A DNA stretch of 63,975 nucleotides from an uncultured Candidatus Rokubacteria bacterium (lineage in GTDB: Bacteria > Methylomirabilota > Methylomirabilia > Rokubacteriales > CSP1-6). A model generated the notes under the pieces. It did not search any database. It saw nothing but the letters and a program-made list of their open reading frames with translations, and was not told the origin of the DNA. Positions 4,411-63,843 of this stretch are shown one piece after another. Positions within the stretch are counted from its first letter, which is position 1. Each line of letters starts with the position of its first letter. The stretch lies in NCBI GenBank assembly GCA_963789955.1, contig CAWBMV010000010.1:1-63975 (forward strand), written 5' to 3'. A program made the position numbers and the translations under genes.

Positions 4411-4426
4411 AGCAAGCGGCCTGCCA
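4411..4426 (-). promoter_or_regulatory. sigma-54 promoter
   Basis: TGGCAGGCCGCTTGCT, 30 bp upstream of ATG 4381. Confidence 0.75.
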
Positions 4427-4471
4427 TGTCCGCGACGCCTTTCGGATCGCGGGCTTGCGACTACTTCGGGG

Positions 4472-4509
4472 TGGGGTATTGACGCTCTCGGTGAGGCGGC
4501 TTCGCCTCG
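4472..4509. promoter_or_regulatory. Tandem putative enhancer (UAS) sites
   Basis: TGGGGT-N6-GCTCTC and TGAGGC-N6-GCCTCG, 20-bp period. Confidence 0.55.
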
Positions 4510-4533
4510 CTACGCGACCCCAGGACTCGTCGC

Positions 4534-4978
4534 TCACCGCCCGCGCACGGTCAGGACAGGACACGACGCCAGGCTCACGACTCGGGTCGCGACACTTCCC
4601 AGCAGGACGCGTTCGATGCCGCTCCGGCCATGCGTTCCGATGACGATCATCGACGCGCGTCGCGATCGGGCCGCCCGCGTGATCGTCCCGGCCTCCGAGC
4701 CTTCCATGAGGAGGGCGGTCGCCCGGGCGCCCGCGGCCCTGGCCCGGGCCGTCCATCGCGCCAGCTGTTTCAGCGCCGCAGGCTCGCGAGGCTTGTCGCA
4801 GCTGTGCGTAGGTCGGTGGATCGATGGCGCGGTCGCCGATCATCGGGACCATCGGGTTCAGGACGTGCAGCACCAGGAGCTCGCTCCTGCTTCCTTTCGC
4901 CAGCTCGATCGCCTTGGCGAACGCGGGCCGGGACGCGGACGAGAAGTCGGTCGCGTGGAGGATCGGGCGCTTGGCCAT
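4534..4978 (-). CDS. Universal stress protein; frameshifted
   Basis: ILHATDFSSAS N-terminus; C-terminal CPVLTVR in shifted frame. Confidence 0.85.
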
Positions 4979-4991
4979 TGATGAGCTCTCC

Positions 4992-6174
4992 TCAAATCAC
5001 CTTGTGGGCACGGCCGATTCGCACGAACGCGGCGACGGCCTGCTCGAGATGCGCCGGCTCGTGCGCGGCGCTGATCTGCACGCGGATGCGCGCCGCGTCT
5101 TTCGGGACCACTGGAAAGGAAAAGCCGACCACGTAGATCCCCTCCCGCAGGAGGTCGGCCGCCATCTGGTGCGCGAGCCTGGCGTCGCCCAGCATGATCG
5201 GAACGATCGGATGCTCGCCGGCCCTGATGCTGAAGCCGGCCTCGCTCATGGCGCGGCGAAACCACCGGGTATTCTCCGCGAGCCGCTCGCGGAGAGTGGT
5301 GGTTTCGGACAGCGTCTCCAGGCAGGCCAGCGCCGCGGAGACCAGCGCGGGCGGCAGCGAGTTCGAGAAGAGGTAGGGACGCGAGCGCTGGCGCAACAGC
5401 GCCACGACCTCCCGGCGGCTCGCGGTGAAACCCCCGCTGGCCCCGCCCAGCGCCTTGCCGAGCGTCGAGGTGATGATGTCGACTCGACCGGCGACGCCGC
5501 AATACTCGGGTGTGCCGCGGCCGGTCGGTCCGAAGAACCCGGTGGCGTGACTGTCGTCGACGACGACCAGCGCAGCGTGGCGGTCGGCCAGGTCACAGAT
5601 CGCGGCGAAGCGGGGCCACGTCGCCGTCCATCGAGAAGACGCCATCGGTCACGATCAGACGCGTCCGCGCGCTCCGGGTCTCGGCGAGGACGCGCTCCAG
5701 GTCGGCCATGTCCGCGTGCGCGTAGCGCTGCCGCTGCGCCCGGCAGAGGCGGATGCCGTCGATGATCGAGGCGTGGTTGAGCGCGTCGGAGATGACGACG
5801 TCGTCTTCGTCGAGGAGCGTCTCGAAGAGTCCGCCGTTGGCGTCGAAGCACGACGTGTAGAGGATCGCGTCCTCGACGCCCAGGAAGCGGGCGATCGCCG
5901 CCTCGAGCTGCCGGTGGATGCTCTGGGTTCCGCAGATGAACCGTACGCTCGCCATACCGAAGCCCCAGCGCGCGAGACCATCCTGCGCGGCGCGGATCAG
6001 GCGAGGATCGTCGGCCAGACCGAGGTAGTTGTTGGCGCAGAAGTTCAGCACTTCACGGCCGCCCACCGCGATGCGCGCCGATTGAGGGCTCTCGATGACG
6101 CGCTCGTCCTTCCACAGGCCGGCGTTGCGGATCTCGTCGATCTCTGCCTGGAGCCGCTGCGCGATTGCGTACAT
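4992..6174 (-). CDS. kbl: Glycine C-acetyltransferase (2-amino-3-ketobutyrate CoA ligase); frameshift ~5610
   Basis: [60 protein letters not shown]. Confidence 0.92.
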
Positions 6175-6216
6175 GAGCTCTCTCCCGGGGCGGACGGTGT
6201 CGCCCCCGACGCCCGC

Positions 6217-7242
6217 TCAACCTGGCAGGTCGCGGCGCCTCACATTGGGTAACAGGTATTCGTCGAAGGCGCGGCCCAGGTCGTAGGCGGGCGCGAAGCC
6301 CCAGTCGCGTCTGGCGCGCGTGTCGTCGACGTCCTCGGGCCACGAGTCCACGATGGCCTGCCGGCGCCGATCGGGCGCGAACGTGATCGGCACGCCCGGG
6401 AAAGCCTTACGGACGAGATCGGCCAGCTCGCCGGCGGTCGGGCTGAAGGCCGAGACGTTGTAGACCGAGGAGGTCAGCGCGTCGGAGGGCGCGTGCAGCA
6501 GATCGAGGAGCGCGCTGATCGCGTCCGGCATGACCATGAGCGGGATCCGCGTGTCCTCGCGCACGAAGCACGCGTAGGGCCGCTGCCTCGACGCGGCGTG
6601 GAGCATCTCCGGCGCGTAGTCGCTGGTGCCCCCGCTCGGCGTCGTGAACGCCGAGATCAGGCCGGGAAAGCGAATCGCCCGAAAATCGACGCCCGCCGGC
6701 TGGCTCTGCGGGGCGAGCTGCCGGTAGTGACGGGCGAAATAGCGGCCGAGGTGCTCGCAGTAGAGCTTGCCGCAGCCGTACATGGTGATCGGCGCCAGGC
6801 CCACGTCCTCGGCGACCTTGCCCGCCGCGCGCTTCGCCGAAGGACCCGCAAACCCGTAGACCGCGATCGAGCTCGGGAAGAGGAACTTGACGGGACGCCC
6901 GATCGATCGCGCCTCCTCGACCGCCAGATGGAGGAGGTTCAGCGTGCCCTGCACGTTGACCTCGTGGGCCGTCTCGGGGACGAATTCCGCGCGAGTCGAC
7001 AGGATCGCCGCGAGGTGGAAGACGACGGAGATCTCGAATTCGCCCATCACCCGCTCGAGCAGATGGCGGTCGAGCACGTCGCCCACCACGGTCGTCGCGC
7101 AGCGTCGCGCGAGCTCGGGATCGAGCGGCCTGGCGTCGACGGCCAGGACGTCGAAGGTGCCGAGGTCGGCGAGGCGATGGATCAACCCGTGTCCGATCTC
7201 GCCGTTTGCGCCGGTGACGAGGACCACGGGCTTGCGTGCCAT
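6217..7242 (-). CDS. SDR/GalE-like L-threonine 3-dehydrogenase
   Basis: TGANGEIG, HLAAILS, PSSIAVYG, YGCGK, RFPGLIS, GGTSDYA, SWP; directly upstream of kbl. Confidence 0.8.
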   Translation of the reverse strand: MARKPVVLVTGANGEIGHGLIHRLADLGTFDVLAVDARPLDPELARRCATTVVGDVLDRHLLERVMGEFEISVVFHLAAILSTRAEFVPETAHEVNVQGTLNLLHLAVEEARSIGRPVKFLFPSSIAVYGFAGPSAKRAAGKVAEDVGLAPITMYGCGKLYCEHLGRYFARHYRQLAPQSQPAGVDFRAIRFPGLISAFTTPSGGTSDYAPEMLHAASRQRPYACFVREDTRIPLMVMPDAISALLDLLHAPSDALTSSVYNVSAFSPTAGELADLVRKAFPGVPITFAPDRRRQAIVDSWPEDVDDTRARRDWGFAPAYDLGRAFDEYLLPNVRRRDLPG

Positions 7243-7407
7243 CTCAGCCAGCAGCGTAGTACCGGCGAGTACCGGCTGGCAACGAATGCGTGCGGACCCG
7301 CGCTGCGCGTGGAGCTGCGGCAGGTCCTCACGGGTCGAGCACAAGATTCGCGAGTTTCTCGCAGTTTGTCGTATCGTACGGGCGATGCACGATTCCTGAG
7401 TCACACC

Positions 7408-7521
7408 ATGCACGCCCACAAGCTCGGGCTCGTACTGACGGCCTTCATCGGAGGCTGGCACCTCGTCTGGCGTGGCGCGGCGCGGATGACCGTCGGCACG
7501 AACCGAGTCTCGATCCTCTGA
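7408..7521 (+). pseudogene. Short ORF, possible stub of a small membrane protein
   Basis: MHAHKLGLVLTAFIGGWHLVW hydrophobic start; stop overlaps next ATG. Confidence 0.25.
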
Positions 7522-7787
7522 TGGCGAAGACGCGCGGTCTCGCGAGCGAGTTTCGCCGACGGCTCGCCGCGGCTCGGCGATATCTCTTGCGGGCGGTAAC
7601 CACCGGCAGCCGTCCGCAGGGGAAGCGAGCGCTCCGCGAGCTCGCCGCGGCCGAGGCACGGATCGATGCCGGCATCTACGGGTTGTGCGAATCGTGCAGC
7701 CGACCGATCTCGCTCGCGCGACTCCGGGTTTCGCCCACGACGCGACGATGCACGCGGTGCGCCGGCGCCCGGCGGCGGCGCTCGTGA
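7521..7787 (+). CDS. TraR/DksA C4-type zinc-finger protein (short)
   Basis: AEARIDAGIYGLCESCSRPISLARL...CTRC. Confidence 0.75.
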   Translation: MAKTRGLASEFRRRLAAARRYLLRAVTTGSRPQGKRALRELAAAEARIDAGIYGLCESCSRPISLARLRVSPTTRRCTRCAGARRRRS

Positions 7788-8674
7788 ACGTTCCGGTCAG
7801 GGGCGACGACGACAGGAGCTCGTCGCTCGACGCGCTGCTGCCGCCGGCGATGGCGCATCGAGCCGAGCAGATCGGCGTCCGCAAGGTGGCGATGGCGCCG
7901 ATGCGCACGCTGGCGCTGGCCGTCCTCGCCGGCGCGTTCATCGCGCTGGGCGGCGCCTTTGCGACCACTGCGGCGGCCGGCGCCGGGGCCGCGCCATGGG
8001 GACTCGTACGTGTCGTCGTGGGCGTGGTCTTCAGCCTCGGACTGATCCTCGTTCTGGTCGGCGGCGCCGAGCTCTTCACGGGCAACAACCTCATCGTCAT
8101 GGCGTGGGCGAGTGGACGCGTCGGCACCGCCGCCCTCTTGCGCAACTGGACGATCGTGTTCGCCGGTAACGCGCTGGGCGCGATCGCCACGGCGGCCGTG
8201 ATCTGCGTGGCGGGCGTACACCGCTTCGGCGGCGGCGCGTGGGGCTCCACGGCGCTCGCGATCGCGTCGGCGAAGCTCGGGCTGGGGTTCGTCCAGGCCG
8301 TCGCGCTCGGAGTGCTGTGCAACGCCCTGGTGTGCCTGGCCGTCTGGCTGACCTACAGCGCGCGCACCACCACCGATCGCATCCTGGCGATCGTGCCGCC
8401 GATCAGCGCATTCGTCGCGATCGGATTCGAGCACTCGATCGCCAACCTCTACTTCGTGCCGCTGGGAATCTTCGTCGCCGTCTTCGATCCGACGTTCGTC
8501 GCGGCGCGCGGTCTCGCGGGGCAGGCCGATTCACTCACGTGGACGGACTTCGTGCTGCGAAACCTCGTCCCGGTGACGCTCGGCAACATCCTGGGCGGAT
8601 CGTTGCTGGTGGGCGCCGTCTACTGGTTCGTCTACCTCGGCCGAGCCCGAGCGCGAGGGCAGCTCGTAGGCTAG
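7784..8674 (+). CDS. focA: Formate/nitrite transporter (FocA-like)
   Basis: LAGAFIALG, FSLGL, GAELFTGN, GNALG, LCNALVCLAVW, FEHSIAN, VTLGNILGG. Confidence 0.88.
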   Translation: MNVPVRGDDDRSSSLDALLPPAMAHRAEQIGVRKVAMAPMRTLALAVLAGAFIALGGAFATTAAAGAGAAPWGLVRVVVGVVFSLGLILVLVGGAELFTGNNLIVMAWASGRVGTAALLRNWTIVFAGNALGAIATAAVICVAGVHRFGGGAWGSTALAIASAKLGLGFVQAVALGVLCNALVCLAVWLTYSARTTTDRILAIVPPISAFVAIGFEHSIANLYFVPLGIFVAVFDPTFVAARGLAGQADSLTWTDFVLRNLVPVTLGNILGGSLLVGAVYWFVYLGRARARGQLVG

Positions 8675-9114
8675 GCGCGCACCGTCAGCACGGGACACCG
8701 GGCGGCCGCGAGAACTCGCGACGCCACGCTCCCCAGGAGCGCCCTCGTCAGGCCGCTGCGACCGTGGGTGCCGATCACGATCAGGTCGGCCCGTCTCGCG
8801 CGCGCGAACCGCACGATCCGCTCGTGCGTCACCCCGATGTCGAGCACCACGCCCGAGGCGCGCACGCCGGCCGCTTTCGCCGTCGCGACCAGGCGAGCGA
8901 GCTGGCGCCGAGCTGTGATCTGCTGGCCGCGCTCGAGATCGTCCCAGACCGTCGGCGCCACGTAGCTGTCGGGGATCACCGGCAGCATCGACAGGACGTG
9001 AACGACGAAGAGCTGAGCGCGGTGGCTCTTCGCGAGCTCGATAGCCTTCCGGAACGCGGGTCGAGAGGCCGGGGAGAAATCCGAAGGATGGACGATCCGC
9101 CGAAATGTGCGCAT
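8671..9114 (-). CDS. Universal stress protein
   Basis: IVHPSDFS, DLIVIGTHGRSG, LLGSVA, CPVLTV. Confidence 0.92.
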   Translation of the reverse strand: MRTFRRIVHPSDFSPASRPAFRKAIELAKSHRAQLFVVHVLSMLPVIPDSYVAPTVWDDLERGQQITARRQLARLVATAKAAGVRASGVVLDIGVTHERIVRFARARRADLIVIGTHGRSGLTRALLGSVASRVLAAARCPVLTVRA

Positions 9115-9158
9115 GCGCTATAGCTCCCTTTGGTCAAGCGTGCCCCGAGCATACCGCG

Positions 9159-9942
9159 TCACCGCTCGCCGAGATACCAGCGCGGTTTGGCCTGCGGGCC
9201 GTAGGTGAGGCCGAAGCGGCGCATCGCGGTGTCCGCCACGGACCGAGCGACCTCCACGGGCGAGTCGGTGACGACCAGACGCTCGACGTCCTCCGTGCCG
9301 ATCGTTCCGGCCGCGAGCGGGCGTGACCGCAGGAACTCGACGAGCGGCTCCCAGAAGTCGTGGCCGACGAGGACGATCGGGAACTCCCTGATCTTGCCGG
9401 TCTGAACGAGCGTCGCCGTCTCGAAGATCTCGTCGAGCGTGCCGAATCCGCCGGGCAACGCGACGAAGGCATACGAGTACTTGACGAGCATGACCTTGCG
9501 CACGAAGAAGTGATGGAAGGTGATCCAGCGGTCGAGGTAGCTGGTTCGGCTTCTGCTCCTCCGGCAGCTCGATATTGCAACCGACCGAGCGTCCGCCGAC
9601 CTCCTTGGCGCCGCGGTTGGCGGCCTCCATGATCCCGGGGCCGCCGCCGGTCATCACCGTGAAGCCGGCGCGCGCGAGCTCCCGCCCCACCTCGCGGCCG
9701 AGCGCGTAGTACGGGTGATCCTCCTTGAAGCGCGCCGAGCCGAAGACCGTCACGCACGGACCGACGAAGTGAAGGGCGCGGAAGCCGCGAATGAACTCGA
9801 CCATGATGCGCAGGGCTCGGACGAGCTCCGTGCGGCGCGGCTGCGGGCCCTGCAGGAAGCGCCGGACCTCGGGCGAGGCCCCGTGTCCCCAGGTGTCTGG
9901 GGCGGGCGGCGGTGTCTTCACCGGCACGTCGAGCCTCTGCAC
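9159..9942 (-). CDS. LOG-family (TIGR00730) nucleotide phosphoribohydrolase; frameshift ~9540
   Basis: TVFGSAR, TGGGPGIMEAANRGA, RKVMLVKYS, PGGFGTLDE. Confidence 0.88.
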
Positions 9943-9966: not shown

Positions 9967-10004
9967 CCGGGAACCTCCGCCTCAAGTGGGACACCCGCGC
10001 CCCA
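9967..10004. promoter_or_regulatory. Tandem putative enhancer (UAS) sites
   Basis: CCGGGA-N6-GCCTCA and TGGGAC-N6-GCCCCA, 20-bp period. Confidence 0.6.
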
Positions 10005-10068
10005 GCGGCGCGCCGCCGCCACGGTTGGAAACCATCGAAAAATCGCGCAGTCCGACGAGGCGCAGGGA

Positions 10069-10084
10069 TGGCACTTCGGTTGCT
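10069..10084 (+). promoter_or_regulatory. sigma-54 promoter of hsp20-CBS-CBS-groEL-ABC unit
   Basis: TGGCACTTCGGTTGCT, consensus match. Confidence 0.8.
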
Positions 10085-10218: not shown

Positions 10219-10656
10219 ATGCGAGCGCTGACCCCGTGGAAGGGAATGGATGTGTTGAAGAACGAGATGGACCGGGTGTTCGACCGTTTCTTCGAGCCGC
10301 GCTGGGACGAATTCGAGGCCGCCGGCGAATGGGCGCCCAAGGTCGATATCGCTGAGACCAAGGACGCTGTCGTGGTGAAGGCCGAGATCCCCGGAGTCGA
10401 GCAAAAGGACATCAACGTCTTGCTCCACGATCAGGTGCTCACGATCAAGGGCGAGAAGCACCACGAGAAAGAGGAGAAGGACGAGAAGTACCACCGGGTC
10501 GAACGCTCCTGGGGGGCCTTTACCCGGGCCTTCCGGATGCCGGCCGCGGTGTCCGGCGACAAGGTGACCGCGACGTTCAAGGACGGGACCTTGACGGTCA
10601 TGCTGCCGAAGGCGCCCGAGGCCAAGGGCACCACGATCCCGGTCAAGTCCGCCTAG
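10219..10656 (+). CDS. Small heat-shock protein Hsp20/alpha-crystallin
   Basis: PKVDIAE, AEIPG, LTIKGEK, ERSWGAFTR, ATFKDGTLTV; AGGAGG RBS. Confidence 0.93.
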   Translation: MRALTPWKGMDVLKNEMDRVFDRFFEPRWDEFEAAGEWAPKVDIAETKDAVVVKAEIPGVEQKDINVLLHDQVLTIKGEKHHEKEEKDEKYHRVERSWGAFTRAFRMPAAVSGDKVTATFKDGTLTVMLPKAPEAKGTTIPVKSA

Positions 10657-10754
10657 CGTGCGCGAGAGGCGCGATGGGCGCTGACCTCGACGATCTCGTC
10701 GCGGCGTGTCGCGCTCACCGCGCCAGCACACGGCAGCTCATCAAGGGCGAGGTG

Positions 10755-11244
10755 ATGCACGCGCGGATAACGACCCTGGTGCGGGACGTGATGACCAGGC
10801 GGACGCTCACGATCGAGCCGGAGGCGTCCCTCGCCACCGCGATCGCCGTGATGCGGGACAACGAGATCCGTCACCTGCCGGTCGTCGACAGCACGGGCCG
10901 GCTCGCCGGGATCATCACCGATCGCGACCTCCGATCCGCGGCGCTGGCCCCCGCGCTCTCCGAGTTCCTGCCCGCCGGTCTCAAACGAGCGGTCGAAGCA
11001 GCCACGGATGATGCTCCAGGAGCTCAGGGTGAAGGACGTGATGACGTGGGGGGTCGTCACCACTCGGCCCGACGCCACGGTGGCCGAGGCCGGAGCGGTG
11101 ATGTTCGAGCGCCGCATCGGGAGCCTGCCGGTTCGCGAGGACGGCAAGCTGGTCGGTATCGTCACGGAACGCGACGTCTTCAAGGCGCTCATGATGGCGA
11201 TCAAGCCCGTCAGGGGCGCCGACCCGGACACGTTCTTCTGGTAG
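10755..11244 (+). CDS. CBS domain protein; frameshift ~11005
   Basis: IRHLPVVD..GIITDRDLR; IGSLPV..GIVTERD. Confidence 0.85.
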
Positions 11245-11259
11245 GAGGCGAATGGAGCG

Positions 11260-11823
11260 ATGCGGCACCCGAAACGATCGATCACGCGTGACATTCGGAC
11301 GCGCCGGCCCCTTCATCCCGGTCGCGACGCCGACGAGCACGAGGCACTCCAGTGGCCGGAAGCGGGCATCAGCGTCGCGGACTACATGACTCGCTCGCCC
11401 GCGACCATCCACTCGGACGCGCTCGTCCGCGGCGTCGTCGACATGATGCGCAAGCGGAAGATCCGACACCTGCCGGTGGTCGATCGAGAAGGCCACCTGG
11501 TCGGCATCGTCACGGATCGCAACCTGCGACAGGTGATCTTCGACCCGACCATTCAGGAGCGGCTCGGCGACCTGGCCACCATGCTCAACACGCTCACGGT
11601 GCGCGACGTGATGACCTGGGGGGTCATCACCGTGCGGCCGGAGGCGCAGATCCGGGAGGCCGCCCGCCTCATGCGAGAACGGAAGGTCGGGGCGCTGCCG
11701 GTCGTCGACGGCGAGCGCGTCGTCGGCATGCTCACGGAGACCGACGTGCTCCGGGCGTTTCAGGACGTCTTGGACCGGGGCGTGCTCTCGAAGCCCTACC
11801 GGTGGGCGCTCACGTTTCGCTGA
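11260..11823 (+). CDS. CBS domain protein
   Basis: IRHLPVVD..GIVTDRNL; VGALPVVD..GMLTETD. Confidence 0.88.
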   Translation: MRHPKRSITRDIRTRRPLHPGRDADEHEALQWPEAGISVADYMTRSPATIHSDALVRGVVDMMRKRKIRHLPVVDREGHLVGIVTDRNLRQVIFDPTIQERLGDLATMLNTLTVRDVMTWGVITVRPEAQIREAARLMRERKVGALPVVDGERVVGMLTETDVLRAFQDVLDRGVLSKPYRWALTFR

Positions 11824-11854
11824 GAACGTGCGGACGGGGAACGGGGGAACGGCA

Positions 11855-11974
11855 ATGGTCGAAGCAATTCGTGACCAATGGGTGATCGTCGTCGCGGCGA
11901 TCGGGGTGGTGGTCGTCGTCGCCTGGCTCGTCGTGACCCGTCGATCCGGCGATCGGCGATCGAACGGACGATGA
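11855..11974 (+). CDS. 39-aa single-pass membrane microprotein
   Basis: MVEAIRDQW-VIVVAAIGVVVVVAWLVVT-RRSGDRR; purine-rich RBS; fills operon gap. Confidence 0.5.
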   Translation: MVEAIRDQWVIVVAAIGVVVVVAWLVVTRRSGDRRSNGR

Positions 11975-12016
11975 GGCACCTCGAGCCTTGTAGGGAATGA
12001 AGGGGAGGGCGAAGCC

Positions 12017-13636
<1,620 letters not shown>

Positions 13637-13657
13637 GCAGCGAATCGGAGCAAACGG

Positions 13658-17430: not shown

Positions 17431-17455
17431 ACGCGATGAGCCGTGGGAGGACTGA

Positions 17456-54129: not shown

Positions 54130-54443
54130 GCCGCGCGGCGCTCACGCTCGCGCTGGCGATCGCCCTCGCGGCTCTCACGGCGCCGGCTCGCGCCCAGGAC
54201 ACCGCCGATCCGGGGAAGGGCTATTTCATGAGCAATGGCTGCTACGGGTGTCACACCGTCGGCAAGATGGGGACGCCAATCGGCCCCGACCTCTCCAAGG
54301 TCGGCGCGAAGTATTCGCGGCAGTACCTGGAGCGCTGGCTCCGAGATCCGTCCGCCCAGCGCCCCAACGCGCACATGCCGACGCTCGAGCTGAGCGAGCA
54401 ACAGGTGAAGGACTTGGCCACGTTCCTGTCGTCGCTTCGCTGA
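54126..54443 (+). CDS. Monoheme c-type cytochrome
   Basis: Signal peptide, CYGCH, GPDL, HMP distal Met. Confidence 0.88.
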   Translation: MSRAALTLALAIALAALTAPARAQDTADPGKGYFMSNGCYGCHTVGKMGTPIGPDLSKVGAKYSRQYLERWLRDPSAQRPNAHMPTLELSEQQVKDLATFLSSLR

Positions 54444-54447
54444 GGCG

Positions 54448-55044
54448 ATGGAGACGGCGATGATTTCTATTCCGTCGATCCGGCGCGACCTGACGAGTGA
54501 CCTCCTGGGCCGCCACATCTATCTGTTCGGCCCCGGATCCGTCACCTCCGAGATCCTCCGGCGCCTCGCGGAGGCGGGAGCGCAGGAGGGGACCGTCGTG
54601 CTGTCCGCCACCGAGGGAACGCGGGTCAGCGCGTCGGCGCTCTTCCGCCCGCATCTGGCCGTCGGCGCCGTACCTCTGTTCTCGGCCGTCGCGACCCTGG
54701 CGCTCGTCGACGCGATCGGGCACGACGATCTCGCGGTGACGCCGAAATGGCCGGATCAGGTGATCGTCGACGGCGTGCTTGCGGCACACAGCGTGGTGCA
54801 AACCGCGCCGGCCGGCGGGCGCACGAGCTACGTCATTCTCGGGGCTGATATCGACGTCCGGGCGCTGGAGGCCATGGCGTCCGGACCGATCGACTGGAAC
54901 ATCGTCATCGCGGCGTTCTTGAACGCCCTCGACAAGTGGGCCACGGCATATGCCGCACGGGGTCCGGCCGCCGTGCGGGGGGCTATCCGGTTCCTTCCAC
55001 GGGCGCCGGTCGCGAGAAATCTGGAGGCAAGAAATGCGGGTTAG
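54448..55044 (+). CDS. Degenerate BirA/BPL-like ligase paralog
   Basis: GAQEGTVV, KWPDQ, YVILGADI; lacks the Q-x-x-G-x-G-R loop, catalytic K and C-terminal domain. Confidence 0.6.
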   Translation: METAMISIPSIRRDLTSDLLGRHIYLFGPGSVTSEILRRLAEAGAQEGTVVLSATEGTRVSASALFRPHLAVGAVPLFSAVATLALVDAIGHDDLAVTPKWPDQVIVDGVLAAHSVVQTAPAGGRTSYVILGADIDVRALEAMASGPIDWNIVIAAFLNALDKWATAYAARGPAAVRGAIRFLPRAPVARNLEARNAG

Positions 55045-55489
55045 GGAGGCGATGAGCGGAAACGTCACGACGATCGACGCCTCGGAGTCGGCTCACTCGG
55101 CGATCGGTCGGATGCTCGCGCGGCGGGTCAGACATCTGCCGGTGGTGGACGCGCAGGGAGCGCTGGTGGGCATCGTCACGGACCGCGATCTGCGCCACTA
55201 CCTGTTCTCGCCGGGCGTGTTCGATCGCATCGGACAGGTGGCCGCCGATCAGCTCCTTAAAGCCGTGACCGTGAAGCAGGTCATGACGTCGCCGGCCCTC
55301 AGCGTCCACGCCGACGAAGATCTCGAGACGGCTGCGCGGATCATGGCAGGACGCCGGATCGGCTCGCTGCCGGTCGTCGAGAAGGGGCGCGTGATCGGGA
55401 TCATCACGGAGACCGATCTGCTCCGGCAGATCGTGTTGACCGAGGCGGACACGCCGGAGTGCGAGGCGATCGTCGTCTCGTTCCCGTGA
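55034..55489 (+). CDS. CBS domain protein
   Basis: VRHLPVVD..GIVTDRDLR; IGSLPVV..GIITETD. Confidence 0.9.
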   Translation: MRVREAMSGNVTTIDASESAHSAIGRMLARRVRHLPVVDAQGALVGIVTDRDLRHYLFSPGVFDRIGQVAADQLLKAVTVKQVMTSPALSVHADEDLETAARIMAGRRIGSLPVVEKGRVIGIITETDLLRQIVLTEADTPECEAIVVSFP

Positions 55490-56082: not shown

Positions 56083-56119
56083 TGGGACCGCTGCGCACCG
56101 CTGGGGCGGCAATGCCACA
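56083..56119. promoter_or_regulatory. Tandem putative enhancer sites
   Basis: TGGGAC-N6-GCACCG and TGGGGC-N6-GCCACA, 19-bp period. Confidence 0.6.
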
Positions 56120-56182
56120 GCTCGCCGGCCTGAACGCTGCCGTCCAACGCGGCAACCGCGTGAAAACCTTGGGATTGGATCC

Positions 56183-56198
56183 TGGCACCACGGTTGCC
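56183..56198 (+). promoter_or_regulatory. sigma-54 promoter
   Basis: TGGCACCACGGTTGCC. Confidence 0.75.
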
Positions 56199-56211
56199 TA
56201 TCAACACGACC

Positions 56212-57007
56212 ATGAACCTGGACATTCAGATCATCCAGAAGCACATCGCCAGCCCGGCCGCCGCGCGCGAGATCCGGCTCTTCGGGAGTCGTCGCGTCCA
56301 CCAATGGTGTCTTGCGCGACCTTGCGATGAAGGCCGCGCCCGAGGGGACCGTCGTCGTTGCCGACGAGCAGACCGCCGGCCACGGGCGCTTCGGCAAGCC
56401 CTGGTTCTCACCGCCGGCCGTCAACCTCTATCTCTCGACGCTCTTGCGGCCGACCGTCGCACCGCGCGACGTGGGCGCGCTCACGTTCGTCGGGTCCCTC
56501 GCCGTGTGCGACGCGATCAGGGCGGAGGGTATGGACGCCACGATCAAGTGGCCGAACGACGTCCTCGTCGAGCGCAAGAAGGTGGCGGGCATCCTCGTGG
56601 AGTGCGCGACGGTCGAGAACCGCGTCGACTACGTGATCGTGGGCTTCGGCGTGAATTTGAACGTCACGCATGAGGCGCTCATGGCCGCGCTCGGACATTC
56701 GGGCCACGCGGCGGGCTCGCTCGCGGAGTTCGCGGACCGTGAGATCGATCGTAACGCGTTCGCGGCTCGCTCCTGAATCATCTCTTCCGATGGGTCGAGA
56801 CCTACCGCGGCGTCCGGCCCCGCTCCGCTGCTGGACGCGTGGCGCGATCGGGACATCTTGACCGGACGGCGGGTCGAGGTGCGAGGCGAGGGCCCGTCCT
56901 ACGACGGACGGGTGCTGGGCGTCGATGCCGAGGGCCATCTCGTGCTTCGCGATTCGCTCGGCGACCTGCACCGAGTTCTGGCCGGAGAAATCCGGCTGTC
57001 CGACTGA
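56212..57007 (+). CDS. birA: Biotin-protein ligase (class I, no HTH); frameshifted
   Basis: ADEQTAGHGRFGKPWFSP, KWPND, KVAGILVE, GFGVNLN. Confidence 0.85.
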
Positions 57008-57026
57008 GGACGCGGGCGGATCAATC

Positions 57027-57476
57027 ATGGCAAAGCGCATTCTGGTTCCCCTTGACGAAGCGGTGCAGGCCGAGAGCATGATCGACGCGGTCGGCGCGAC
57101 TGGCGCGCACCGCGGGCGCGACCGTTCGCCTCTTGCACGTGGCGCCGATCCCGGAGAGTGTCACGGACGACTACGGGCACGTGGTCGTCTATGCCGATCA
57201 GGAGACGGCGCGCCTCGAGGCCGAGGGGCTGGACTATCTGCACGCGGCCTCGATGCGTCTCGATGGCGTCTCGCTCGAGTGCGCGGTGCGATACGGCGAT
57301 CCGGTCGAGCAGATCCTGGACGAGGCCAGTCCTGGAGCGCCGATCTGATCGCGATGACGACGCGGGGACGCGGCGCCATCGAGCGTGCGTTGCTGGGAAG
57401 CGTCGCCGAGCAGGTGTTCCGCAAGGCCCCCATGGCGGTTACGCTCTACCGTGCCCCGCGAGATCCGCGGGCATGA
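57027..57476 (+). CDS. Universal stress protein; frameshifted
   Basis: ILVPLD, RYGDP, DLIAMTTRG, LGSVAEQV. Confidence 0.85.
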   Translation: MAKRILVPLDEAVQAESMIDAVGATGAHRGRDRSPLARGADPGECHGRLRARGRLCRSGDGAPRGRGAGLSARGLDASRWRLARVRGAIRRSGRADPGRGQSWSADLIAMTTRGRGAIERALLGSVAEQVFRKAPMAVTLYRAPRDPRA

Positions 57477-57525
57477 CGGATTCCGGGCGCAGCGCGCGCC
57501 GCGTCGCTCGGACAGGAGGCAGACG

Positions 57526-58165
57526 ATGCTCGTCGCGGACGTGATGCAGGCGGCGGTGGTCACGATCACGCCGAAAACGTCGCTGCCGGAGGCCGTGCGG
57601 CTCGCGCAGCACCGCGGCATCCGTCATCTCCCGGTCGTCGAGCACGACCAGCTCGTCGGCATCGTCTCCGATCGCGACCTCAAGCGCGCGATGGCCTCGC
57701 CCGCGACGAGCCTCGAGGTCCACGAGCTCCGCTATCTTCTCGACGCGGTCACCGTCGACGAGATCATGACGCGCGCCGTCATCACCGTCGGCCGTACGTT
57801 CGCGATCGAGGAAGCGGCGAGGCTGATGCTGAGGGAGAAGGTAAGCGCGCTTGCCCGTCACCGAGCAGGGGCGCCTTATCGGCATCGTCACGGAGACCGA
57901 CGTCCTGGAGCTTTTCGTGAGAGGCATGGGCGCGGGGCAGCCATCGAGCCGGATCGACGTCCGACTTCCCGAGGACACCGCGACCCTGGCCGATCTCGTT
58001 CACACGGTCGAGGAGGCTTCGGTCGCAATCTCGAGTATCATGACCCTCGCCGATCGCGCTGGGCACAAGGACGTGGTGATCCGTGTGCGGTCGATCGACC
58101 CGAGAGCGGCGGTCGCGAATCTCGAAACTCGCGGATACGCGGTTCGTGACCCGAGGAACGGCTGA
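57526..58165 (+). CDS. AcuB-like CBS-CBS-ACT protein; frameshift ~57850
   Basis: IRHLPVV..SDRDLK..SPATSL; C-terminal SSRIDVRLPE ACT-like domain. Confidence 0.82.
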
Positions 58166-58168
58166 GCC

Positions 58169-59053
58169 ATGCGCGTCCTGCTGGCCACGGATGGCTCCAA
58201 GAACTCCCAGGCGGCGGCCGCGTTCCTGAAGGCGCTTCCGCTCCCGGCGTCCACGACGGTCCGGATCATCGCCGTGGTGTCGCTGCCCGGTTTTGCTCTC
58301 GAAGCGACGTCGGCCCCCGCGGTCCAGCGCGCGGTGTTCGACGAGGCGGAAGACGTTGCCAGCCAGGCTCGGGACATGCTGGCGCCGCGCGGCTTCACGA
58401 TCGAGACCGACGTCGCCGAGGGCGATCCGCGGGTGGAGATTGTTCGGCAGGCGGACGAGTGGAAAGCCGATCTCATCGTGCTCGGCGCCCGGGGCCTCGG
58501 CGGGGTCAAGCGGTTCCTGCTGGGAAGCGTCTCGGACGCGGTGGCCCGTCACGCCCGATGCCCCGTGCTGGTCGTCAAAGGCCAGCGTCCCAAGCTCGGC
58601 AGCGTGCTCGTCGCGACGGACGGCTCCGAGGACTCCTTCCAGGCCGTTCGATTCTTGCAGTCGCTCGACCTGCCCCGGCAGACCAGGCTCCGCTTGCTCA
58701 GCGTGGTCGAGCGACTTCGCTATCCAACCACCGCGCCGCAATCGGTGCGCGGTCAGCTCGTCAGAATGCTCAAGGAGCTCGAGGCCGAGCGCCGCGGCAA
58801 GCTCGACAAGGTGCTCGAGCGGGCGGCCGGCCAGCTCGACGACAAGATCACGCGCGTGACACGATACACGCCCACCGGTGACCCCGCCGAGGAGATCGTC
58901 AAGACCACGCAGGACTTCGACACCGATCTCGTCGTCGTGGGAGCCCGTGGCCTGGGGGGCGTGACGCGGGTCCTGCTCGGCTCGGTATCCGAGAAGGTGC
59001 TCCATCACGCGCGATGCCCGGTCCTGATCGTCAAGGCAGGCCAGAAGGCCTGA
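58169..59053 (+). CDS. Tandem-domain universal stress protein
   Basis: Two ATDGS..DLxVxGARG..LLGSVS..CPVL units. Confidence 0.92.
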   Translation: MRVLLATDGSKNSQAAAAFLKALPLPASTTVRIIAVVSLPGFALEATSAPAVQRAVFDEAEDVASQARDMLAPRGFTIETDVAEGDPRVEIVRQADEWKADLIVLGARGLGGVKRFLLGSVSDAVARHARCPVLVVKGQRPKLGSVLVATDGSEDSFQAVRFLQSLDLPRQTRLRLLSVVERLRYPTTAPQSVRGQLVRMLKELEAERRGKLDKVLERAAGQLDDKITRVTRYTPTGDPAEEIVKTTQDFDTDLVVVGARGLGGVTRVLLGSVSEKVLHHARCPVLIVKAGQKA

Positions 59054-61473
59054 CGTCGGCCGACGCGGCCGACCGTCTCCGGCGCTGGGGACCGAACGAG
59101 CTCGCAGCCGCGCGCCGGTTCCAGGCGGCGCGCCAGATCGCCGGGTGGCTGGCCAGCCCGCTCATCATCATCCTGCTCCTGGCGAGCGTCGCATCCGCCG
59201 TCCTGGGGCAGGTCGTGAGCTCCATCGTGATCGCGCTGATGGTCGTGCTCGGTGTGGGCCTGAACTTCGTGCAGGCGTACCGGTCACAGGTCGCGGCTCG
59301 GCGACTCCGCGAGCGTGTCAGCCAGCGTGCAACGGTCGTGCGCGACGGTGCGGTGAGCGAGATCCCGGTGGCCGGTGTGGTCCCGGGCGACGTGATTCAC
59401 CTGGCGGCCGGGGATCTGGTGCCGGCGGACGGGGCTCTGGCGTTCGCCAAGGATCTCTTCCTGAACGAGGCGGCGCTCACCGGCGAGTCGCTGCCGGCCG
59501 AGAAGCACGCGGCGGCGCGCGTCTTTCGCGGCACGTCGGTCGTCAGCGGCGTCGGCGTCGCGCTGATCGACGCCACGGGCGCGGCGACGCAGTTCGGACG
59601 CATCGCGGCGCATCTGACGGGACGCGCCCCCGAGACCGAGTTCGAGCGCGGCACCCGCCGCTTCGGTTTCCTGATCCTCCAGGTCGTGATCTTCCTCGTG
59701 CTCTTCGTGTTCCTCGTCAACGCTCTGCTCCGCCGCGATCTGCTGGAGTCGTTCCTGTTCTCGGTAGCGCTCGCGGTCGGGCTGACGCCCGAGCTCCTGC
59801 CGATGATCGTCTCGGTCACCCTGGCCAGCGGCGCCGTGCGCATGGCGAAGAAGAAGGTGATCGTCAAGCGGCTCGCGGCGATCGAGAACTTCGGCAGCAT
59901 GGACGTGCTCTGCAGCGACAAGACCGGCACGTTGACGGTGGGGGAGATCGTCCGTCGACCGCCACGTCGATCTGCCGGGCGAGACCGACGAGGCCGTGAT
60001 GCGTCTGGCCGCGCTCAACAGCGCGTACCAGACCGGGCTGCGGAGCCCGATGGACGAGGCGATCCTGCGACAGCAGCATCCCGACGATCGCTCGCTACTC
60101 CCGTAGTCGACGAAGTCCCGTTCGACTTCAGCCGGCGGCGCGTGTCGGTGGTCGTCGAGGACGGCGGTGAGCGCCTCGTCATCGTCAAAGGCGCGCCCGA
60201 GAGCGTCCTGGCGGTCTGCACGCACGTGCGAGCTCGACGGCGCGCCCCAGGGCGCTGGATACCGAGACGACTGCGCAGGCCGACGCGCTGTTCCGCCGCC
60301 TCAGCGAGGAGGGCTACCGGGTGCTCGCGGTCGCCGTACCGCAAGGTCGATCGTCGGGAGGCGTACACGGTGGCGCGACGAGTGCGACGCTGACCCTGGC
60401 CGGATTCGCGGCGTTCCTCGATCCGGCGCGCGACGATGTTCCCGCGACACTCGCCGCGCTGCGCGAGGACGGCGTCGTCGTCAAGATCCTGACCGGCGAC
60501 AACGAGCTGGTCGACGGCGACGATCTGCGCGCAGGTCGGCCTGCCGGCCGACACGATCGTCCTGGGCGCCGAGATCGAGCGGCATGACCGACGCCGGCGC
60601 TGGCGGCGGTCGCGGAGCGGACCGACGTCTTCGCGCGGGTGTCCCCCGCGCAGAAGAACCGGATCATCCTGGCGCTGCGCTCCGCGGCCACGTCGTCGGC
60701 TACCTCGGCGACGGCATCAACGACGCGCCGTCGCTGCGACCGCCGACGTCGGCATCTCGGTCGACAACGCCGTCGACGTGGCGCGCGACGCGGCCGACAT
60801 CATCCTGCTCGAACAGCGGCCTGAGCGTCCTGCACGACGGCGTCATCGAGGGGCGACGGAGCTTCGGCAACATCATGAAGTACGTGCTCATGGGGACGAG
60901 CTCGAACTTCGGCAACATGCTCAGCATGGCGGGCGCGGTCGCTCGTTCCTGCCGTTCCTGCCGATGCTGCCCGCTCCAGATCCTCCTCAACAACTTCCTC
61001 TACGACTTCTCGCAGCTGACGATCCCGACCGACCACGTCGACCGCGCGTACCTGCGCAAGCCGCGCCGCTGGAACATCGCGCTTGATCCGGCGCTTCATG
61101 CTGGTGCTCGGCCCGATCAGCTCGCTCTACGACTTCCTGACGTTCGCGGTGATGCTCGGCGTCTTCCACGCCGGCGCGGCGCTGTTCCGCACGGGCTGGT
61201 TCGTCGAGTCGCTCGCCACCCAGACGCTGGTGATCTTCGTCATCCGCACGGCGCGGCAACCCGTGGCGCAGCCGGCCGAGCCGCGCGCTGGCCGGGGCGT
61301 CGGCACGGCCGTGGCCGTCGGGATCGCGCTGCCGTTCACGCCGCTCGGCCGGCTGGCTCGGCTTCACGCCGCTGCCGCCGCTGTTCTTCGCGGCGCTGCT
61401 GACGATGATCGTGGCGTACCTCGCGCTCGTCGAGGTCGTCAAGCGCTGGTTCTACCGCCGCTATCCCATGTAG
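59014..61473 (+). CDS. mgtA: Magnesium-translocating P-type ATPase (MgtA-like); many frameshifts
   Basis: TGES, PELLP, MDVLCSDKTGTLT, KILTGDN, GDGIND, SSNFGN, LYD, WFVESL. Confidence 0.85.
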
Positions 61474-61489
61474 GAGGAGACGCTACGTC

Positions 61490-62056
61490 ATGACGACCCC
61501 ATTGACCGTTCGTGACGTTCTCTTCGCGACCGATTTCTCGGAGGCCTCGCGTCTCGCCGGGCAGACGGCGGCCGAGCTCGCGCGCCACTTCGGCGCGCGG
61601 CTGCACGTGCTGCACGTGGTACCGCCGGTCACCGATCCGGCGCCCGCCCCGGATGCGCTCCGCGCCGCCGCGGCCGAGCTCGGCGCGGGCCTACGGGTTG
61701 TCACCGCGACGGCTTCGGGTCGGGCGGCCTCGCAGATCGTCGACTACGCTCGTGGCAACGCGATCGATCTGATCGTGGTGGGCACATACGGACGCACGGG
61801 CGTGTCGCACGCGATCCTCGGTAGCGTGGCCGAAGCCGTCGTGCGCAGGGCGGGCTGTCGCGTCCTGACGGTTCCGGCCGTCGCGGCCGGCGCTCCGAGA
61901 TCTCCGGTCGTGGCCGACGAGGTCGTGGAAACGACGTCCTGCGCAGTGTGCGGCGGCCCGAGCCAGGACGACCTCATTTGCGAGGCGTGCCGGGCGCGAA
62001 TCCGCGGCGAAGCGCTCGAGCGCAAGCGGGGCGAAGAGCGCCCCGGCCGCCGTTAG
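61490..62056 (+). CDS. Universal stress protein with C-terminal C4 zinc ribbon
   Basis: ATDFS, DLIVVGTYGRTG, GSVAE; tail CAVC..CEAC. Confidence 0.85.
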   Translation: MTTPLTVRDVLFATDFSEASRLAGQTAAELARHFGARLHVLHVVPPVTDPAPAPDALRAAAAELGAGLRVVTATASGRAASQIVDYARGNAIDLIVVGTYGRTGVSHAILGSVAEAVVRRAGCRVLTVPAVAAGAPRSPVVADEVVETTSCAVCGGPSQDDLICEACRARIRGEALERKRGEERPGRR

Positions 62057-62059
62057 CTG

Positions 62060-63397
62060 CTAGCGGGGCCGAGCGGGAAGGCGCTCCAGCCACTCGTCGA
62101 CGCAGCCGCCGAGGCCCGGGCTGGCGGTCTCCGCGAACTCGTATCTGGCCCGGACGACCGGCTTGTCGATCGCGATCAGGCGGGCGAGATCGACCGGCGT
62201 GGCAGCGACGACGACGTCGACGTCCACGCGCGCGATCGTCGTCTGGAGGGCGTCGAGCTGCTCACGGCTGTAGCCGACGGCGGGCAGGACCGGTCCGATA
62301 TGCGGATACCGCGAAAACACGGCCTCGAGGGCGGGCGCCGACGCCGATCGCGGGTCGACCACGATCGCGCCGATCGCGGTTGCCGCGACGAATCCGGCAC
62401 CGTGGGGCATCTGCCCGTGCGTGATGGTCGGGCCGTCCTCGATGACGAGCGCGCGTCGTCCTCGGACCGCGGCCGGATCATCGAGGCGGACCGGTGAAGC
62501 CGCCTGCACGAGTCGGCGCCGCGGTCATTCACCGCGCGGGCCGAGGCGATCGCGCGCTCCACCTGCTCGCCGGAGGCGGTGTCGACCTTGTTGACCACGA
62601 TGACGTCGGCCGTGCGGAGGACGGCCTCGCCCGGATGATAGCCGCGCGCGTCGTCCGGACGGAGCGCGTCCACGACGACGATGTGCAGATCGGGTCGCAG
62701 GAACGGGAAGTCGTTGTTGCCGCCGTCCCAGACGATCACGTCGGCTTCCGACGCCGCGCTGGCCGGCGATGCGGGCGTAGTCGACGCCGGCGAACACGAG
62801 GTTGCCGGCCGCGAGGTGCGGCTCGTACTCCTCTCGCTCCTCGATCGTGCATGCGGCGGCATCGAGGTCGGCCAGCGTCTCGAAGCGCTGCACCCGCTGA
62901 CGCTCGAGATCCGCGTACGGCATCGGGTGGCGCAGCACCGCGACCCGAAGGCCACGCGCCCGCAGTTTCGCGCCCAGCCATCGGGCGATCGCCGATTTGC
63001 CGCAACCGGTTCGCACGGCCGAGACCGCGACGACCGGCACCGCGGCCTGGAGCATCGTCCGCTCGGGACCCAGCAGCACGAAGTCGGCGCCGGCGGCGAG
63101 AGCGCGCGAGGCGATACGCATCACGTGGGCGTGGGAGACGTCGCTGTAGGCGAAGACCACCTGCGTCACCTGGTGGCGGCGGCAGAGGATTTCGAGCTCC
63201 GACTCGTCCTCGATCGGGATACCGGCCGGATACCGGGGGCCTGCGAGGGCGGCGGGGTACCGGCGTCCCGCGATACCGGGGATCTGCGTCGCCGTGAACG
63301 CGACGACCGTGACCGCGGGCTCATCGCGATACACGACGTTGAAGTTGTGGAAGTCGCGCCCGGCGGCACCGAGGATCACGACTCGTTCGTGCGTCAT
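62060..63397 (-). CDS. COG2403 P-loop protein (cyclic 2,3-diphosphoglycerate synthetase-like family); frameshifted
   Basis: GAAGRDFHNFN, FAYSD, AVRTGCGKS, RHPMPY, TIEEREEYEPH, WDGGNND, EDGPTITHG. Confidence 0.82.
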
Positions 63398-63799
63398 CTT
63401 GTCTCTCCCATCCGGCGGCGGAGCGTCTTGCGCATCGCGCCGGCCGACGTCGTCACGAGCATCGCGAGGCCGAGACCGAGCGCGGCGACGATGCTCGTCA
63501 CGCCGGCGTGCAACAGGAGCCACGCGCAGAGCAGGAAGGCGACCGACGGGATCAGGATCTCCGCCACGCGTGTCCCGCCGCTTGCCGCCGTGCGCTGCCG
63601 CGCGGCGAGCCAGGGGAGACGGCCGTTCACGAACAGGAACGAGACGAGCACGACGGCGTCAGTCATCGCCGCGACCTGTCGAAGGGTCCCGAGCATGACG
63701 AGCACGGCGAGTGTAGACTCCGGCTCCGAGGATGAGCCCGACGCCTGACAGCGAGACCTGCCAGAGAGCGAGCGATCGACGAAGTGAAGTGGAGGCCAC
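63394..63799 (-). pseudogene. Internally deleted APC-family amino acid permease
   Basis: N-terminus MASTSLRRSLALWQVSLSGVGLILGAGVY (TM1) joined near 63712 to C-terminal helices; GGAGG RBS. Confidence 0.65.
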
Positions 63800-63827
63800 G
63801 TCGCTCTAAATCCTCCCGTTCGGGTTC

Positions 63828-63843
63828 AGCAACGGCAATGCCA
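63828..63843 (-). promoter_or_regulatory. sigma-54 promoter
   Basis: TGGCATTGCCGTTGCT. Confidence 0.75.

Follow-up and report, generated by a model that had tools for sequence, protein, structure and literature searches.

Why does one contig of an uncultured bacterium carry so many promoters of a single alternative sigma factor, and what holds them together? The question is raised by contig CAWBMV010000010.1 of assembly GCA_963789955.1, a 63,975-nucleotide stretch from a Candidatus Rokubacteria bacterium of the Methylomirabilota, referred to here at its full length as the window. A sequence-only reading had noticed in it 19 sigma-54 (RpoN) promoter motifs together with an enhancer-binding protein gene at 46352-47755, and had proposed that the island is one co-activated regulon controlled from inside. 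The window is the complete contig C10 of an assembly of 6.77 Mb in 38 contigs, which is 87% complete and 5% contaminated; genes were called with a dicodon gene caller, and families were assigned by a Pfam scan of the 97 open reading frames (ORFs) of the window. On balance, we favour the reading that the boxes of the window would form one regulon for dormancy under low oxygen or energy limitation, governed by the 46352-47755 activator. The wiring itself, namely the activator, an upstream palindrome and the sigma-54 promoters, is predicted with high confidence, and, given this wiring, a low-oxygen/redox signal is a reasonably good prediction.

The sequence GG-N10-GC is the signature of RpoN promoters, which require an activator of the GAFTGA-containing AAA+ class. 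Boxes were scored with a hand-made matrix built from the RpoN consensus, at a cut-off of at least 12 bits. All 19 motifs reported earlier were found again at their coordinates and on their strands; the 19 sites that pass the cut-off are 18 of these plus an extra box at 34989-35004 (minus strand), which lies within the start of a LonB-like gene, while box 40295 scores below 9 bits, yet has a strong enhancer pair. The density is indeed beyond expectation, with 19 sites in the window where the remainder of the genome would predict 2.39 (Poisson P ~1e-11), and the window ranks 1st of 321 overlapping 64-kb genome windows (median 2, runner-up 12, on contig C7). Thirty order-4 Markov copies of the window gave a mean of 1.67 and a maximum of 5 sites, 19 sites lie outside confident genes against 2.27 expected there, and control matrices found 1 site when reversed, 1 with the spacer shortened by one and 0 with it lengthened by one. 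These P values are post hoc, as the window had been chosen for its sigma-54 feature, and they are still significant after a 321-fold correction. In most cases a start codon follows the -12 C at a distance of 15-140 nt, the start after 40295 being uncertain, and the five divergent pairs are as described, the two arms having one enhancer in common between them in four. The genome contains rpoN, on C17, where it may belong to a sibling strain, and 38 PF00158 matches that correspond to about 30 enhancer-binding-protein genes. At 17035, 34956, 40467, 53051 and 56183 the first start codon comes merely 15-19 nt past the -12 C, and therefore 5' leaders of about 3-7 nt, that is, near-leaderless mRNAs, are predicted; the start spacing is identical at the orthologue of 56183 in the relative G011. 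At 34956-35004, two strong boxes stand head-on with overlapping predicted starts, one of them inside the LonB-like coding sequence.

What had escaped the earlier reading is that the boxes have in common a predicted enhancer upstream, the 18-bp palindrome TG(G/A)GGC-N6-GCC(C/T)CA. Expectation-maximisation on the 19 upstream regions returned TGgGGCg.CG.cGCCcCA with scores of 115-125 (widths 18-22), compared with 36-41 in three shuffles. An enhancer pair of at least 14 bits accompanies 17 of the 19 window sites and 16 of 251 sites elsewhere in the genome, a comparison that is circular for the window; the best outside matches sit ahead of Hsp20 and other members of blocks of universal stress protein (USP) genes. 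With matrices rebuilt from 92 promoters of other genomes (loci L053-L130), which were seeded and picked with the window's own and hence are just partly independent, the enhancer term is strong at 15 of the 19 sites first reported. The spacing between enhancer centre and box has maxima at about 60, 71, 80, 91 and 101 bp, one helical turn apart, so that the sites are helically phased. Between enhancer and box lies an A/T-rich patch (A/T 0.56-0.58 versus 0.2-0.3), which perhaps fits what an IHF-type bend would need; the genome has five HU/IHF-family genes, and the strict IHF consensus has 0 sites in the window. A separate group of five strong sigma-54 boxes at G000:C4:23896-29711 is without this enhancer and stands upstream of small proteins, including a CsbD-like one (by eye); it is probably a second, general-stress sigma-54 regulon under a different activator.

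The activator gene at 46352-47755 does encode the GAFTGA motif, as had been claimed, and in addition a REC domain and a Fis-type helix-turn-helix (HTH), all split by three frameshifts into four frames; each piece is 82-90% identical to an intact homologue, and the gene is intact in short-read relatives. The stretch DRKTxH of the recognition helix shows no variation among 17 orthologues. Orthologue loci were taken as the 80 HTH-matched loci that are the best 80 of 518 confirmed, 48 of them labelled Rokubacteria and 32 other. Beside the Rokubacteria-labelled orthologues, 84 of 119 sigma-54 sites have the enhancer, with at least one such site in 41 of the 48 loci and a USP in 43 of 48; in the 32 other loci the count is 33/84, and around 28 other activators of the same genome it is 1/40. 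Among 40 relatives, at least 4 matches to a composite box-plus-enhancer pattern occur in 17 of the 20 genomes with an N-terminal orthologue match, compared with 4 of the 20 without. An HTH follow-up on five of the latter found the activator in the three highest-scoring (G004, G032, G038), which makes the contrast 20/23 with the activator versus 1/17 without (medians 6 and 1; reversed-pattern control totals 40 and 28, respectively), although the genomes were regrouped post hoc and related ones are not independent samples. Within one genus, the genomes with the activator have 7, 13 and 9 composite matches versus 0-4 in those without; for 13 of 16 genomes of the same genus no copy of the activator was found, and a search of 150 phylum genomes detected its HTH in 79.

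An identity as NtrC, AtoC, ZraR, PrsR or GlrR was considered and rejected, the intact orthologue falling below all of these NCBIfam cut-offs (AtoC 454/714, PrsR 423/503); NtrC consensus sites number 0 in the window. A protein search gave generic names only, a cultured organism or a specific name being absent among the 120 matches listed of 773. Five loci labelled Binatia, Nitrosotalea, Deferrimicrobiaceae, Verrucomicrobiia and Acidoferrum (L062, L073, L074, L082 and L083) have GC contents of 0.67-0.73 and Rokubacteria-like activators, for which either mis-binning or transfer would account.

Outside the window, the rebuilt matrices detected 15 sites of at least 16 bits, the enhancer term being positive for 11: six on C7 (10-30 kb), two on C34, in a USP/Hsp20 block, and single ones on C2, C6 and C37. 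The proposal of one co-activated regulon run by the local activator is well supported by a phased palindrome that lies beside the activator orthologues, not beside 28 others, and that co-occurs with them across relatives, whereas "controlled from inside" and the equation of island with regulon were overstated, with about 11 modules on other contigs and a third kinase on C7. The second block, at G000:C7:8000-34000, comprises 6-7 promoter-plus-enhancer modules, USPs, Hsp20, RtcB-like and HlyD/ABC genes (by eye) and this third kinase. Similar blocks exist in relatives, with 8, 12, 9 and 10 enhancer-bearing sites in 80 kb in G011, G040, G137 and G139, respectively, and 6 in 35 kb in G002; USP matches lie near the activator in G137 (16/24), G034 (12/20) and G063 (10/12). 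The gene order of the island is shuffled between families, and the motif and its phasing are conserved across them. Three genomes speak against clustering as a general rule, namely G153 with 3 enhancer-bearing sites in 80 kb, G020 with 1 in 28 kb, and G047 with none near its activator. In G047, which carries a pmoA-family gene and is a methanotroph relative, a strong box whose enhancer lies 189 bp upstream stands at the head of about 21 kb of genes on one strand (G047:C1:826851-848426; L172, L173), among them CBS, USP, Hsp20, SAM synthetase, P-type ATPase and LonB genes; with the targets of G047 in a single long operon 780 kb away from its activator, the island cannot be equated with the whole regulon. 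A like module in G042 has its enhancer at 192 bp, and the composite pattern found nothing in G047, G042 and G043 because the enhancer is about 190 bp away there.

The first genes listed behind the module in long-contig relatives (56, with some duplicates) are mostly USP, CBS, Hsp20, receiver and DksA-type genes by eye, and 22 of the 56, plus one gene from L180, were put through a family scan. Among the genes headed by the module is that for NirK, which scores above its cut-off; others encode cytochrome oxidase subunit II in three genomes, S30AE factors in two and an Rv2629-like factor that stays under its cut-off. Rv2629 itself is described as a hypoxia-induced translation inhibitor (PMC10901736). 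In two genomes, from two families, the module precedes a Nar/Nxr-like type II DMSO-reductase alpha subunit (L180:2-1303, L037:2-2908), which in L180 starts with a twin-arginine-like leader.

The modules of the window and the genes that they would serve are the following, with the basis of a row in brackets where it is a scan or family match.
1..1571, plus: oppD/oppF flank, 96% identical to C37; left edge of the island
1585..9503: left block of CBS, two USPs, aminotransferase, NAD epimerase, FNT channel and LOG-family gene (Pfam)
4411..4509, minus: sigma-54 box 4411-4426 and weak-to-moderate enhancer 4492-4509, heading 3068-4381
3068-4381, minus: MBL-fold protein and rhodanese behind box 4411 (Pfam)
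9987..10084, plus: enhancer 9987-10004 and box 10069-10084 (matrix scan)
10219..15633, plus: Hsp20, two CBS proteins, frameshifted GroEL, MacB-type ABC pair (Pfam, gene calls)
17035..17149, minus: box 17035-17050 and tandem enhancers 17113-17130, 17132-17149, facing a small unannotated ORF from 17017
17415..18265, plus: box 17415-17430 and YkuD-family gene (matrix scan, Pfam)
18293..18398, plus: tandem enhancers 18293-18330 and box 18383-18398 (matrix scan)
18486..25741, plus: CBS protein, DksA/TraR finger, frameshifted acetyl-CoA-synthetase-like gene, PDH E1a/E1b/E2, ACP, OsmC, small proteins
25757..28212, minus: hypothetical repeat protein, FBPase (PF01950), triple-BON protein (Pfam)
28280..28534: divergent boxes 28280-28295 (minus) and 28519-28534 (plus) with common enhancer 28416-28433 at 128 and 93 bp
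28909..32381, minus: run of small kinase, PCMT and archaeal-type SAM synthetase, with frameshifted inositol monophosphatase
32475..32669: divergent boxes 32475-32490 (minus) and 32654-32669 (plus) with common enhancer 32562-32579 at 79 and 82 bp
32808-33358, plus: CBS gene, headed by the 32654 box
34888..35004: weak enhancer 34888-34905, box 34956-34971 (plus), extra box 34989-35004 (minus) facing an SLC13 symporter gene
34986..37401, plus: LonB-like AAA protease, frameshifted (Pfam)
37492..40299, minus: ACP/AMP-binding/acyltransferase fusion (Pfam)
40295..40482: divergent boxes 40295-40310 (minus, weak) and 40467-40482 (plus) with common tandem enhancers 40363-40400
at 40498, plus: truncated P-type ATPase remnant, headed by the 40467 box
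41309..42511, plus: enhancer 41309-41326, box 41420-41435, small ORF, two USPs
42568..43136, plus: tandem enhancers 42568-42606, box 42670-42685, hypothetical protein
43152..44405, minus: soluble histidine kinase with FixL/DosP/FG214-like PAS (His112, His115, Met128), predicted haem sensor
44705..46355, plus: membrane histidine kinase (PilS-like 6TM, PAS, HisKA, HATPase), one frameshift near 46000
46352..47755, plus: NtrC-type enhancer-binding protein (REC, AAA+ with GAFTGA, Fis-HTH) in four frames
47765..50497, plus: enhancer 47765-47782, box 47857-47872, three USPs, small protein, CBS, single-domain receiver 50123-50497
50647..53033, minus: enoyl-CoA hydratase/phosphate acetyltransferase and acetate kinase
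53051..53248: divergent boxes 53051-53066 (minus) and 53233-53248 (plus) with common tandem enhancers 53142-53180
53309..55489, plus: DUF6335, USP, mono-haem cytochrome c, BirA-like protein, CBS protein (Pfam)
56102..62056, plus: enhancer 56102-56119, box 56183-56198, BirA-like, USP, CBS, tandem USP, frameshifted P-type ATPase, USP
62060..63954, minus: tandem enhancers 63918-63954 (21 bp from the contig end), box 63828-63843, permease fragment, gene without family match

In total, the window holds 11 USP genes, 8 CBS genes, two P-type ATPase genes (one a remnant) and two BirA-like genes, and 15 of the 33 Pfam USP matches of the genome (11 genes) fall in this 0.94% of its length. By analogy, this content is the kit of low-oxygen survival loci. 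The left block recurs in the clusters of relatives, with 4411 as its sole strong sigma-54 site; several genes at 1.6-9.5 kb and the regulator genes themselves have no strong site. We take the aminotransferase and NAD epimerase of this block to be kbl/tdh-like, and the last gene, without family match, to be presumably cPGS-like. The GroEL paralogue at 12017-13636, downstream of the Hsp20 and CBS genes, has no adjacent groES. The protein at 27710-28212 has a signal-peptide-like start, an internal repeat (27793-28018) and no family match, and its paralogue on C30 has a sigma-54 box, the enhancer being absent there. At 29830-32381, the small kinase, PCMT and archaeal-type SAM synthetase (PF01941) share one 815-aa frame, as separate genes or a fusion.

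The two PAS kinases that had been named are both present, and it is here that a candidate signal is found. The PAS domain of the soluble kinase has its best solved-structure matches in FG214 (E 2e-19), FixL and DosP. In an ungapped alignment to FG214, His112 corresponds to His156, the proximal haem ligand, His115 to His159 and Met128 to Met172, and these residues are kept in 30, 26 and 29 of 31 PAS homologues, respectively; the kinase lies below the NCBIfam FixL cut-off (185 vs 850 bits). The third kinase, on C7, also has a haem-type PAS, and a DHp signature is common to it and the two window kinases (81-96 bits versus at most 54 for the others of the genome). The membrane kinase is co-operonic with the activator in the window, G002, G020 and G047. 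Quinone sensing of the RegB/PrrB type was rejected for it, as its domain is PilS-like and reads GGARNSF in the window and GGAxS(T/A)L in orthologues, not GGxxNPF; in 22 orthologues the GG is kept, N is replaced by S in 21, and P is rare. Low oxygen is the best guess for the signal because the targets and the sensor type point there, and we infer it from those alone.

In the scheme that we propose, the soluble PAS kinase would bind haem via His112 and become active when O2 drops, with the membrane kinase and the third kinase on C7 as additional inputs. The kinases would phosphorylate the receiver of the activator, the lone receiver at 50123 being a possible sink. The activator would then bind one or two TG(G/A)GGC-N6-GCC(C/T)CA sites centred near -87, -98, -107, -119 or -128 and loop to the sigma-54 holoenzyme, perhaps via an IHF-type bend at the A/T-rich patch, and would open about 17 promoters in the window and about 11 elsewhere, one central enhancer acting on both arms of a divergent pair.

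Several observations weigh against this scheme, besides the partial independence of the rebuilt matrices and the post hoc regrouping noted above. With those matrices, the enhancer terms are weak at 4411 and 34956; the 28280 enhancer, 128 bp off, falls beyond what was scored; and no enhancer accompanies 17415 over 260 bp, its G011 orthologue having one at 81 bp. In 18 Binatia/delta-type loci, de novo search recovered no clear motif, one strong site each occurs in just 9, and USPs are rare. A terminal oxidase or reductase is absent from the window itself. Frameshifts affect the activator and many of the island genes here, and rpoN on C17 may be that of the other strain, since C10 comes from a sibling strain. 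As to the sensor, the distal His175 of FG214 is a Gly in the soluble kinase, and the distal Arg that we take FixL to have is likewise not kept, so that redox, NO or CO may be sensed instead of O2. A direct PAS search found the haem-type domain in only 31 of the 80 orthologue loci, replacing an earlier "heme" count of 49/80 that was inflated by kinase-domain similarity; by genome, the domain is present in 13 of 23 with the activator, and therefore not universal, and in 2 of 17 without it, the counts by genome being subject to incomplete metagenome-assembled genomes.

These last points lead to the alternative that survives best, which we regard as unlikely yet serious: the same wiring with another signal, in which a general energy-stress or stationary-phase programme would respond mainly to the membrane PilS-like kinase or to a haem ligand other than O2 (redox, NO, CO). 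It is the membrane kinase, not the haem-type one, that shares an operon with the activator here and in three relatives, and no haem-type PAS was found in 10 of the 23 activator-bearing relatives. In addition, USP, CBS, Hsp20, Lon and PCMT are general stress genes, the module is kept in a pmoA-bearing relative, and the PAS of FG214, which is the nearest with a solved structure, has been characterised as a redox switch (bioRxiv 10.64898/2026.03.15.711900). The targets in relatives, which include NirK, a Nar-like subunit, oxidase subunit II and an Rv2629-like factor, argue for low oxygen instead, as does the haem-type PAS that recurs beside the activator in loci of another phylum.

It is improbable that the regulon is real in the lineage and dead or decaying in this strain, the frameshifts being true mutations. 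GC is even throughout the window (0.66-0.72), its nearest loci in the database bear the titles Ca. Rokubacteria or Methylomirabilota, and RNA-family and tRNA scans found none in it. Positions 1-1571 (the oppD/oppF flank) match C37:495639-494072 at 96% identity, with 46 of 62 substitutions at third codon positions, and C10 is therefore a sibling-strain contig; the assembly contains two strains. The matching site on C37 (G000:C37:492555-495639) holds one USP and a small membrane gene, followed by a putative VIT-family gene, while G011 has a 26-kb version of the island between flanks matching those of the window and C37, so that the island is strain-variable. On the right, the contig stops within the island, and no contig that continues it was found; in G011, the enhancer pair matching the right-end pair also serves a second, divergent promoter. 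Decay would fit the three frameshifts of the activator, the one of the membrane kinase, the truncated P-type ATPase at 40498, the lone USP of the sibling strain and the 13 of 16 same-genus genomes in which the activator was not found. Frameshift-like overlaps, however, occur at similar rates genome-wide, as a long-read assembly would give (7.8 per 100 kb on C10, 6.0 on C37, 5.1 on C1 and C34). Because the large contigs are about as affected as C10, sequencing error is the likelier cause of the frameshifts in the window. Contigs from four DNA runs over 42001-52000 include a few that omit a base near 47102, but, coming mostly from other organisms, these contigs bear little on the frameshifts. 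RNA datasets with the window sequence were looked for and none was listed, which is neutral as to its expression. Moreover, the activator pieces match the intact homologue throughout and the boxes and enhancers are near consensus, which is at odds with decay.

Still less probable is that the palindrome is bound by another protein, one of the roughly 30 other activators of this genome or a non-sigma-54 factor, with the local activator as a passenger. The size of that activator set and the G047 activator without an enhancer nearby would allow it; against it, the enhancer is nearly confined to the sites beside this activator (1/40 beside the 28 others), follows it within one genus, and in G047 was located at the distant stress operon. 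Chance, base composition or promoter cassettes copied without joint regulation can be given almost no credence, since, even though G+C-rich palindromes abound at 69% GC and the window was selected in hindsight, the Markov, non-coding-only, reversed-matrix and spacer controls contradict chance, motif and phasing are conserved across families, and all self-matches of at least 150 bp in the window are coding paralogues or one internal repeat.

If the favoured low-oxygen reading is true, what would it mean? Enrichment cultures exist for pmoA-bearing methanotroph relatives, and the activator, found in over half of the phylum genomes searched, reaches these relatives too. Rokubacteria are described as uncultured (PMC5712423), and no regulon described for them was found in the literature. 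A defined activator, a predicted 18-bp site, candidate sensors and a target list make the low-oxygen survival of the phylum testable in E. coli with synthetic parts, and the target list is usable as a metatranscriptome marker. The regulon would be among the larger ones of a single sigma-54 activator, with about 28 modules versus at most 12 operons in Desulfovibrio vulgaris (PMC4641369), and a USP/CBS/hibernation kit would have been wired independently to DosR, FNR-type factors and sigma-54. More tentatively, and with some doubt on our part, the system may be a master dormancy switch of the Methylomirabilota, in which one sigma-54 activator with up to three kinases (haem-PAS and PilS-like sensors) would act on at least 25 promoters covering USPs, chaperones, ribosome hibernation, substrate-level ATP synthesis and low-oxygen respiration. 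Such a switch, possibly a convergent, ATP-gated equivalent of DosR, FixK and Anr, would take the form of a strain-variable island of 25-160 kb in soil Rokubacteria and of one 21-kb operon in methanotrophic relatives.

How, then, does it compare with known systems? The literature search found no paper describing this system in Rokubacteria or Methylomirabilota, within a coverage that leaves out most subscription journals; a survey of sigma-54 regulons reports USP enrichment in Planctomycetia, and its main text, as available to us, names neither Rokubacteria nor Methylomirabilis, while its supplements list predicted sigma-54 regulons (PMC12316311). The nearest system is NmpRSTU of Myxococcus xanthus, which likewise has an NtrC-type activator, sigma-54 promoters, tandem palindromic enhancers, a haem-sensor kinase, an extra receiver protein, USP and CBS targets and a low-oxygen role (PMC11841059). 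The island is set apart from the NmpR system by site, sensor fold, size and layout. The NmpR site, GCGCA-N5-TGCGC, occurs 0 times in the window (0.42 expected); the NmpR sensor is the protoglobin NmpU, with a hybrid kinase NmpS, whereas the window kinases are PAS-type and the globin family has no Pfam match among the window ORFs; and NmpR binds seven promoters at several loci, compared with about 17 predicted here in one 60-kb block and about 11 elsewhere (PMC11841059). An oxygen regulon under sigma-54 that includes USP and CBS genes is thus already known.

Physically clustered low-oxygen regulons of similar size are also known with other wiring. The lxa locus of Burkholderia cenocepacia spans 50.7 kb and 50 genes with 17 motif sites and co-regulated outside loci, and it shares with the window USPs (six in lxa), alpha-crystallin, AckA, Pta, cytochrome c and a cation ATPase, as well as strain variability and ordinary GC (PMC3721108). 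Its motif is an Anr/Fnr-like TGA-N6-TCA with CRP-family candidates (PMC3721108), whereas the window uses sigma-54 boxes; the FNR-type TTGA-N6-TCAA occurs 0 times in the window, and the CRP/FNR family has no match among its ORFs. In the D. vulgaris regulome, activator genes also lie near their own promoters, with palindromic upstream sites and GAFTGA, and the regulons there mostly comprise 1-4 operons, the largest having 6, 9 and 12 (PMC4641369). From FixL, DosP and FG214 the soluble kinase differs in its predicted output, a sigma-54 activator and not FixJ, the proximal His being common to all. Thus, the class of mechanism is ordinary, while the regulator, its site, the regulon size and a DosR-like content under sigma-54 appear to be undescribed.

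DosR is not known to be a sigma-54 activator. The mycobacterial DosRST system nevertheless resembles the island in its USPs, heat-shock proteins and hibernation factors (S30AE and Rv2629-like in the relatives) (PMC12071387, PMC10901736), and a review describes such proteins as common to the lxa, Anr and DosR regulons (PMC12071387). Both DosRST and, as predicted, the island have more than one kinase per regulator, although the former use GAF domains and the latter PAS. By analogy, the island is likely to be a sigma-54 counterpart of the DosR programme of tuberculosis.

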